Assembly: GCF_056746865.1 (NCBI RefSeq)
Contig: NZ_CM163382.1
Length of the DNA: 64,000 bases
Strand: one strand, 5' to 3'
Shown: one piece after another, positions 48,484 through 49,566 of the stretch
Layout of the letters: every line of letters starts with the position of its first letter
How positions within the stretch are numbered: position 1 is the stretch's first letter
Made by a program: the position numbers and the translations under genes
The notes under the pieces: generated by a model
Database searches by the model: none
Told to the model about the DNA's origin: nothing
What the model saw: only the letters and a program-made list of their open reading frames with translations

Positions 48484-49146
48484 GTGAATTTTATTATTTT
48501 ATTTATAAACAAAATGCGTGTAGTGGCGTTAACGCCTGCGCTGCAACCTATTGATGGCGTGGCGGTAAGTTATATTGATGCTGCCGTGGCGTTGGGTAAT
48601 ACCATTAACGAAATGGATAAATATTACACCCAGGAAAATTATAAAGACGATGCGTTTGCGAAAGGGAAAACGCTGCACCAGACATTCTTAAAAAATCTTG
48701 AAGCCTTTGAACCTGTAGCAGAATCTTATCATGCGGCGATTCAGGAAATTAACGATAAGCGCCAGCTTGCGGAACTGAAAAATATTGAACAAAGAGAAGG
48801 GAAAACATTCCACTACTACTCTCTGGCAGTCATGATTTCAGCGAAACAAATTAATAACCTGATTTCGCAAGAGAAGTTTGATGTTGATGCGGCAATGAAG
48901 AAAGTCTCTGAACTGGAAACGCTGGTGGCGCAGGCCAAAGAAGCGGATAAAGGCGGTATGAATTTCTCGTTCATTAATTCGGCAGACCAGTATCAACTCG
49001 AGGCTAAAAAATATGTTCGCCGCATCAGAGATAAAGTCCTGTACTCTGACTGGGATAAAGAGCAACTTCAGGACGCAAACTCAAGCTGGATGGCCGAAGA
49101 CTCATTTCCCGAGAACATTATGCGAGTACAACGAAATGGTCGATGA
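48484..49146 (+). CDS. yiiG: YiiG-like protein (DUF3829 family); start and completeness uncertain
   Basis: 220 aa ORF in the expected position after fdhD; no signal peptide visible at either candidate start (GTG 48484 or ATG 48514). Confidence 0.5.
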   Translation: MNFIILFINKMRVVALTPALQPIDGVAVSYIDAAVALGNTINEMDKYYTQENYKDDAFAKGKTLHQTFLKNLEAFEPVAESYHAAIQEINDKRQLAELKNIEQREGKTFHYYSLAVMISAKQINNLISQEKFDVDAAMKKVSELETLVAQAKEADKGGMNFSFINSADQYQLEAKKYVRRIRDKVLYSDWDKEQLQDANSSWMAEDSFPENIMRVQRNGR

Positions 49147-49566
49147 AATATTTCAGTCAATTGTAATCGCGGGGCGGGTTTGTGATGAGCGCGGATATGT
49201 CACGAAGTCGTGACAATATAAAGCAGAGTGAAGGATAAATTTTGTGAATAAAGTATCATTATTTAATGATTTTGTGAATGTTTAAATTTCTCAGATAATT
49301 TGTTTAAGCGTTATTTATATTTGTGGCTTATGAGTCAGCGTGAATTATATCTAATATTTTTTACGATATTTGGTTAAAAACGGCACTATTGTTATATTCC
49401 TCACGTTCCAGGAAATCAGCGGATTTACTCATATTATGCAGCGGGATACTATCCATCGGCCTGCTGAAGTTGGATTGAAAATTCGAAAGTGCACACCTTA
49501 TATTTCTCTATATACGTATTCCTTTTGGAAAGCGTAGGGTCTCTTTTATTTCAGGGAACGTAAATA

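Follow-up and report, generated by a model that had tools for sequence, protein, structure and literature searches.

Among the closest known counterparts of the locus studied here is yiiG of Escherichia coli K-12 (b3896; WP_001295677.1), whose product of 351 amino acids belongs to the same Pfam family, DUF3829 (PF12889), and whose gene occupies the same spot directly downstream of fdhD. YiiG has been called an uncharacterised lipoprotein, and promoter and start-codon mutations in yiiG have been recovered under laboratory antibiotic selection (PMC11742677). The yiiG region has also been reported as an IS-insertion hotspot in clinical collections (bioRxiv 10.1101/527788). Searching the PDB by sequence with K-12 YiiG as the query gave no solved relative, and NCBIfam holds no model for YiiG or for the neighbouring porin described below. 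In E. coli 118UI (NZ_CP032515.1), PGAP annotates Eco118UI_RS23020 as a pseudogene, 'YiiG family protein; frameshifted; incomplete; missing N-terminus'. RefSeq already carries this call, and nothing in the present locus is new in kind.

We analysed a 64-kb stretch of DNA, referred to as the window. Positions 48523-49213 of this window very probably represent a decaying yiiG pseudogene, derived from a gene for a DUF3829 lipoprotein, which was built in an E. coli chromosome by three successive lesions. Comparison with K-12 and O157:H7 places each of the three to the base. Judged by its sequence, the feature is the orthologue of K-12 yiiG in a decayed state, that is, a member of the DUF3829 family but not an intact gene.

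A yiiG remnant between fdhD and a porin gene

Window positions 48300-49700 are 100% identical to E. coli 118UI, a urine isolate. The gene order is fdoG, fdhD, the yiiG-like ORF, a gene for a 464-aa porin, followed on the minus strand by rhaM and rhaD. The gene for the large subunit of formate dehydrogenase-O (44357-47407, minus strand) is listed as two ORFs, 44357-46771 and 46820-47407; the in-frame TGA between them presumably encodes selenocysteine, which is ordinary and no disruption. The position downstream of fdhD (47601-48434; stop codon 48432-48434) is conserved, with the same order in K-12, O157, and 118UI, and the remnant starts at 48523. Just 3′ of the fdhD stop codon lies a perfect 11-bp inverted repeat, ATAAGTCCTGC ... 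GCAGGACTTAT, with a 16-nt loop (48440..48477, plus strand). It is conserved in K-12, where the region corresponding to 48300-48522 is 96.9% identical, and is still present upstream of the yiiG remnant. This hairpin is likely the terminator of fdhD; our terminator scan missed it because its loop exceeds 8 nt.

A sequence-only reading of the window had described an ORF of 220 codons without a signal peptide, which is confirmed here and which the ORF list places at 48484-49146 (plus strand) with a GTG start. The product matches DUF3829 with 222.7 bits (cut-off, 26.8), but spans only positions 65-270 of the 285 in the profile. If the reading frame is repaired as described below, the match rises to 236.4 bits and covers positions 67-282. 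K-12 YiiG, correctly put at about 350 aa in the earlier reading and 351 aa long, spans positions 2-285. Neither the ORF nor the repaired remnant thus contains the complete domain (positions ~2-285), and 23% of the profile is missing from the remnant. Because of this difference in coverage, we regard the long YiiG as the family-typical form.

The missing part was located by tblastn with K-12 YiiG as the query. In frame +1, residues 139-334 match at 48523-49110 (96.4% identity); in frame +2, residues 333-346 match at 49106-49147. Residues 1-138 have no match anywhere in the 64-kb window. Since K-12 YiiG fails to align over its full length to the 220-aa ORF, the truncation proposed from the sequence alone stands. 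At the nucleotide level, codons 139 to ~332 are retained in the original frame at 48523..49103 (plus strand; 96.4% identity to K-12 L001 6702-7282, L001 being our K-12 reference segment), and codons ~333-346 follow in the +1-shifted frame at 49105..49146 (plus strand; 92.9% identity to L001 7283-7324). The latter lie within a second ORF of 66 aa at 49013-49213 (plus strand), which had already been seen to overlap the yiiG-like ORF and which, according to both tblastn and the alignment, holds the displaced 3′ end of yiiG.

The beginning of the 220-codon ORF does not belong to yiiG. Its first 13 codons (MNFIILFINKMRV; 48484..48522, plus strand) are a spurious 5′ extension, which aligns with L001 6185-6223. 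In K-12 this is fdhD-yiiG intergenic DNA and not YiiG coding sequence, as yiiG starts at L001 6288. The GTG at 48484 is an accident of intergenic sequence, and the 13 codons are read through by chance. A promoter scan of 48300-48523 found no promoter-like site, and inspection of the sequence showed no purine-rich Shine-Dalgarno stretch ahead of GTG 48484 or of the in-frame ATG 48514. In principle, this ATG together with read-through from fdhD could give rise to a cytoplasmic fragment.

A 478-bp deletion at the 5′ end

Alignment to K-12 reveals a 478-bp deletion between positions 48522 and 48523. In the global alignment, window 48300-48522 corresponds to L001 6001-6223, and window 48523 resumes at L001 6702. 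In K-12, the 8-bp direct repeat GTGGCGTT flanks the missing 478 bp as a pair (L001 6224-6231 and 6702-6709), of which one copy is retained at the junction in the window (48523..48530, plus strand). The gene is thus truncated relative to its intact orthologues, with a recognisable junction at the retained repeat. The pattern bears the signature of deletion through microhomology.

Lost with the deleted segment (L001 6224-6701) were 64 bp upstream of the gene, its ribosome-binding site and ATG, and codons 1-138, which include those for the signal peptide (…LGLTGC). The lipoprotein signal peptide with its lipobox (in K-12, MKRNLLSSAIIVAIMSLGLTG followed by C) is therefore absent here, its encoding DNA lying inside the deletion; we take LTGC of K-12 YiiG to be the lipobox by general lipoprotein rules. 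Neither the 478-bp segment nor frv was found relocated elsewhere in the 64-kb window. This deletion accounts for almost all of the shortening of yiiG, and it is located at the 5′ end, away from the frv breakpoint.

A single-base insertion near the 3′ end

The remnant carries a +1-nt insertion at 49104..49110 (plus strand), as identified by comparison with the K-12, O157, and Z0117 alleles. The window reads TCATTTCCCGAG at this site, K-12 reads TCTTTCCCGAG, and O157 and Z0117EC0032 read TCATTTCC(A/G)CGAG. Relative to K-12 the inserted base is an extra A at 49104; relative to O157 and Z0117 it is an extra C in the run 49108-49110. Because of the insertion, the original frame terminates at TGA 49144-49146, and what remains of yiiG is read in the frame of ORF 49013-49213. 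Removal of one base restores ...SFPRTLCEYNEMVD..., which matches ...SFPRALREYNEMVD... of K-12. Hence, no uninterrupted reading frame leads from a start to the native stop: it is broken by this insertion, and the stop codon itself was lost with the frv deletion. A frameshift or breakpoint had been suspected within the 3′ end of yiiG, and both are present, the insertion at 49104-49110 and a junction between 49146 and 49147 that falls within codon 346 of 351.

The frv deletion and the porin gene

The third lesion is a deletion of ~4.8 kb, whose junction was placed at 49146..49147 by alignment to E. coli O157:H7 (L007). Homology to K-12 yiiG ends at 49146, 19 nt short of the K-12 stop codon. The deletion takes these last 19 nt (part of codon 346, codons 347-351, and the stop) as well as the yiiG-frvR spacer, frvR, frvX, frvB, frvA, and 18 bp upstream of frvA. 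Window 48523-49146 corresponds to L007 3086-3708 and window 49146-51500 to L007 8500-10892. As the window is collinear with O157:H7 on both flanks, it lacks L007 3709-8499 (4,791 bp). The microhomology at this junction amounts to at most 1-2 nt.

Beyond the junction, the shifted frame of the remnant runs into a non-homologous read-through tail (49147..49213, plus strand), which ends in …EIFQSIVIAGRVCDERGYVTKS before the stop codon and includes the motif ...EIFQSIVIAGRV... in the fused C-terminus. In frv-bearing strains, this DNA is found on the porin side, upstream of frvA. The tail adds 22 unrelated codons up to TGA 49211-49213, the 3′ end of the PGAP pseudogene feature. It lies outside the DUF3829 profile, because the match of the repaired remnant stops at profile position 282, at residue 208 of 229.

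The adjacent gene (49567..50961, plus strand) encodes an intact RafY-like carbohydrate porin of 464 aa, which matches Pfam Porin_8 (PF16966) with 513.9 bits and is annotated as 'carbohydrate porin' in 118UI. The frv deletion placed this neighbour beside the yiiG remnant; the porin gene does not belong to the pseudogene. In O157:H7 the order is fdhD-yiiG-frvR-frvX-frvB-frvA-porin-rhaM, and the porin gene likewise lies between frvA and rhaM in Z0117EC0032. Because O157:H7 has yiiG-frvRXBA-porin-rhaM, the supposed rearrangement is a plain deletion and the porin is no insertion. The porin gene and its leader are present in about 2,543 of 5,426 complete genomes, O157:H7 included. At the porin site K-12 is the deleted state, the porin having been lost there and not gained in the window.

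The sequence-only reading had suggested that yiiG may be truncated at a rearrangement breakpoint. That a rearrangement at the 3′ end, with frv replaced by the porin, is the main cause of the shortening we consider very unlikely, the alignments having refuted it in this role. A breakpoint does exist inside the yiiG 3′ end, and the frameshift lies 40 bp before it. In this respect the earlier view was right, as it was in calling yiiG truncated. But the breakpoint costs only 19 nt, and the shortfall of ~130 aa stems from the 5′ deletion: residues 139-346 of K-12 YiiG are kept, and the missing 138 residues are N-terminal. Strains whose yiiG 3′ end and frv operon are both intact show the same N-terminal loss. 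Moreover, the porin is ancestral at this place, as seen in O157:H7, so nothing was replaced, and what had been termed a rearrangement is a clean 4,791-bp deletion relative to that strain, without any exchange of frv for the porin.

A side observation concerns K-12, which has no RafY-like porin gene and in which the leader left only a weak trace (73%) at L001 12129-12408.

Direction, order, and distribution of the lesions

Population counts refer to 5,426 complete E. coli genomes. The contiguous 478-bp deletion junction was found in 1,467 of these with a 100-mer query (E<=1e-24); an earlier search with a 60-mer (E<=1e-12) had undercounted this state at 940 genomes. UTI89 and Nissle-derived strains are among the carriers. 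A K-12-like yiiG 5′ segment is present in 3,916 genomes. The remnant directly adjoins the porin leader, the state left by the frv deletion, in 1,165. The frameshift state was detected in about 287 genomes by ungapped 61-mer match, and 847 genomes match this 61-mer with a span shorter by one base. The +1 insertion adjoins short T and C runs, a context in which one might think of sequencing or assembly errors. That the frameshift or the deletions are such artefacts has a practically negligible probability, and we rejected this explanation on the grounds that the same states recur across independent complete genomes (1,467, 1,165, and ~287, respectively).

The polarity of the changes follows from the profile coverage and from the divergent yiiG allele of ST131. 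This allele ends in ...YNRLR followed by the stop, and K-12 YiiG likewise ends in ...YNSLR; the K-12-type C-terminus is therefore ancestral. On the basis of this C-terminus and of the coverage of the DUF3829 profile, we conclude that the long form is ancestral and that the 478-bp and frv changes are deletions. Under the opposite polarity, the short form would be the ancestral one and insertions would have given K-12 and O157 the 478-bp segment and frv, which is extremely improbable. In the long form, direct repeats border the segment, and the C-terminus shared by K-12 and ST131 reaches profile position 285, whereas the fused tail of the window lies outside the profile. A gain by insertion was rejected because the 478-bp segment encodes DUF3829 positions 2-66 together with a family-typical signal peptide.

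The 478-bp deletion also occurs in strains that kept the frv operon (E686 and Z0117EC0032). A K-12-like 5′ segment joined to an adjacent porin leader was found by megablast in 0 of the 5,426 genomes; the statement that the frv deletion occurs only on the 478-bp-deleted background rests on this megablast search, in which very divergent 5′ alleles could be missed. Because of the E686 and Z0117EC0032 intermediates and the missing reverse combination, we infer that the 478-bp deletion came first, followed by the frv deletion and then by lineage-specific decay.

Loss of the native 3′ end and the +1 frameshift are not the only secondary lesions. A separate in-frame deletion of 135 bp inside the remnant is carried by 692 genomes; in DS566 (L004 3355-3375) it corresponds to window 48672-48806 and apparently occurred between GGGAAAAC repeats. 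The remnant of CB209 has an extra -1 frameshift. Several independent secondary lesions have thus accumulated (the +1 frameshift in ~287 genomes, the 135-bp deletion in 692, the -1 in CB209, and the 3′ loss through the frv deletion in 1,165), which is what relaxed constraint predicts.

Two further observations were made on these alleles. Remnants with the 135-bp deletion are named 'DUF3829 domain-containing protein' by PGAP and not 'YiiG family protein'. Compared over window positions 48523-49098, the remnant of DS566 shows 7 differences from K-12 and 15 from the window, yet has the same 478-bp and frv deletion junctions. This pattern hints at either recombination within the locus or a deletion that may have recurred at the same repeat.

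Taken together, the locus shows nested small deletions in a variable region of E. coli, leading from the 478-bp deletion in yiiG to the frv deletion and on to a +1 frameshift or a 135-bp deletion. In the order of events that we propose, a deletion between the two GTGGCGTT copies first removed 478 bp including the start codon, the lipobox signal, and codons 1-138, leaving a gene without a translation start, without an export or lipidation signal, and without the first ~65 DUF3829 positions. On this dead background, and probably as the second event, the ~4.8-kb deletion took the 3′ end of yiiG and frvRXBA, so that the remnant now continues into the upstream region of a RafY-like porin gene that was already there. 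In the sub-lineage of the window, the single-base insertion at 49104-49110 shifted the frame, whence the two overlapping ORFs, one of 220 codons that stops at 49146 and the other at 49013-49213.

Functional status of the remnant

The remnant presumably yields no functional protein and is not expected to be expressed. We judge it non-functional because of the lack of start signals and of an export or lipidation signal, the domain loss, the further lesions in its relatives, and the PGAP pseudogene annotation. Could it nevertheless be a functional, N-terminally shortened YiiG, cytoplasmic and unlipidated, that is translated from ATG 48514 or GTG 48484? An open frame of 210-220 codons does persist, and the haplotype is common (27% of complete genomes). 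The dN/dS ratio between remnant and intact alleles is below 1, although most of this divergence may predate the deletion. But such a protein would have to be made without a Shine-Dalgarno sequence or a promoter-like site, and it would lack the signal peptide, the lipobox, and 23% of the DUF3829 profile. Furthermore, the sub-lineages hold mutually incompatible lesions (the +1 insertion in ~287 genomes, the 135-bp deletion in 692, the -1 in CB209, and a replaced C-terminus in 1,165). A functional remnant therefore seems highly improbable. In a pairwise Nei-Gojobori comparison of seven alleles, dN/dS values among the few remnant alleles range from 0.13 to 0.79 and are based on only 2-6 substitutions per class, too few to show relaxed selection.

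At least 27% of the complete E. coli genomes carry a yiiG inactivated by one shared deletion; B2 ExPEC and probiotic lineages are among them. In addition, several K-12-like strains (e.g., NZ_CP149449.1 and NZ_AP023427.1) have a yiiG that is intact except for an IS1A or IS1B element in its 5′ part, and IS1 insertion is an independent route to yiiG inactivation. Together with the reported hotspot and the mutations obtained under antibiotics, this makes yiiG a gene that is inactivated repeatedly, in nature as well as in the laboratory. That the loss of yiiG was selected rather than neutral appears unlikely. If it were true, the pseudogene would mark the adaptive loss of an uncharacterised envelope lipoprotein that influences drug tolerance.

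Comparison with known loci

The pseudogene Eco118UI_RS23020 of 118UI is the same allele, 100% identical at 48300-49700, and its PGAP coordinates correspond to 48523-49213 of the window; its annotation says nothing on the frv deletion or the junction repeats. Over codons 139-334, the remnant is ~96% identical to K-12 yiiG in nucleotides and 96.4% identical in amino acids. Unlike K-12 yiiG, it lacks the 64 bp upstream, the ribosome-binding site, the start, the signal peptide with its lipobox, and codons 1-138; the +1 insertion interrupts it near codon 333, and its final 19 nt are gone.

The ST131 locus (L005, NZ_OX637959.1, 1-5218) contains an intact, strongly divergent yiiG with ~83% nucleotide identity that encodes 347 aa. 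Two extra genes, for an ATP-binding protein and a 768-aa hypothetical protein, are found there where others have fdhD directly upstream of yiiG.

Z0117EC0032 and E686 share the identical 478-bp deletion junction with the window, and their remnants are 98.4-98.6% identical to it. They differ from the window in having the native yiiG 3′ end and stop, no frameshift, and a retained frvRXBA operon, with the porin gene present in Z0117EC0032. O157:H7 (RIMD 0509939) aligns collinearly with the window to either side of the two deletions (95.5-97.4% identity) and has everything that is missing here, both the 478 bp at the 5′ end of yiiG and the 4,791 bp that run from the yiiG 3′ end through frvA.
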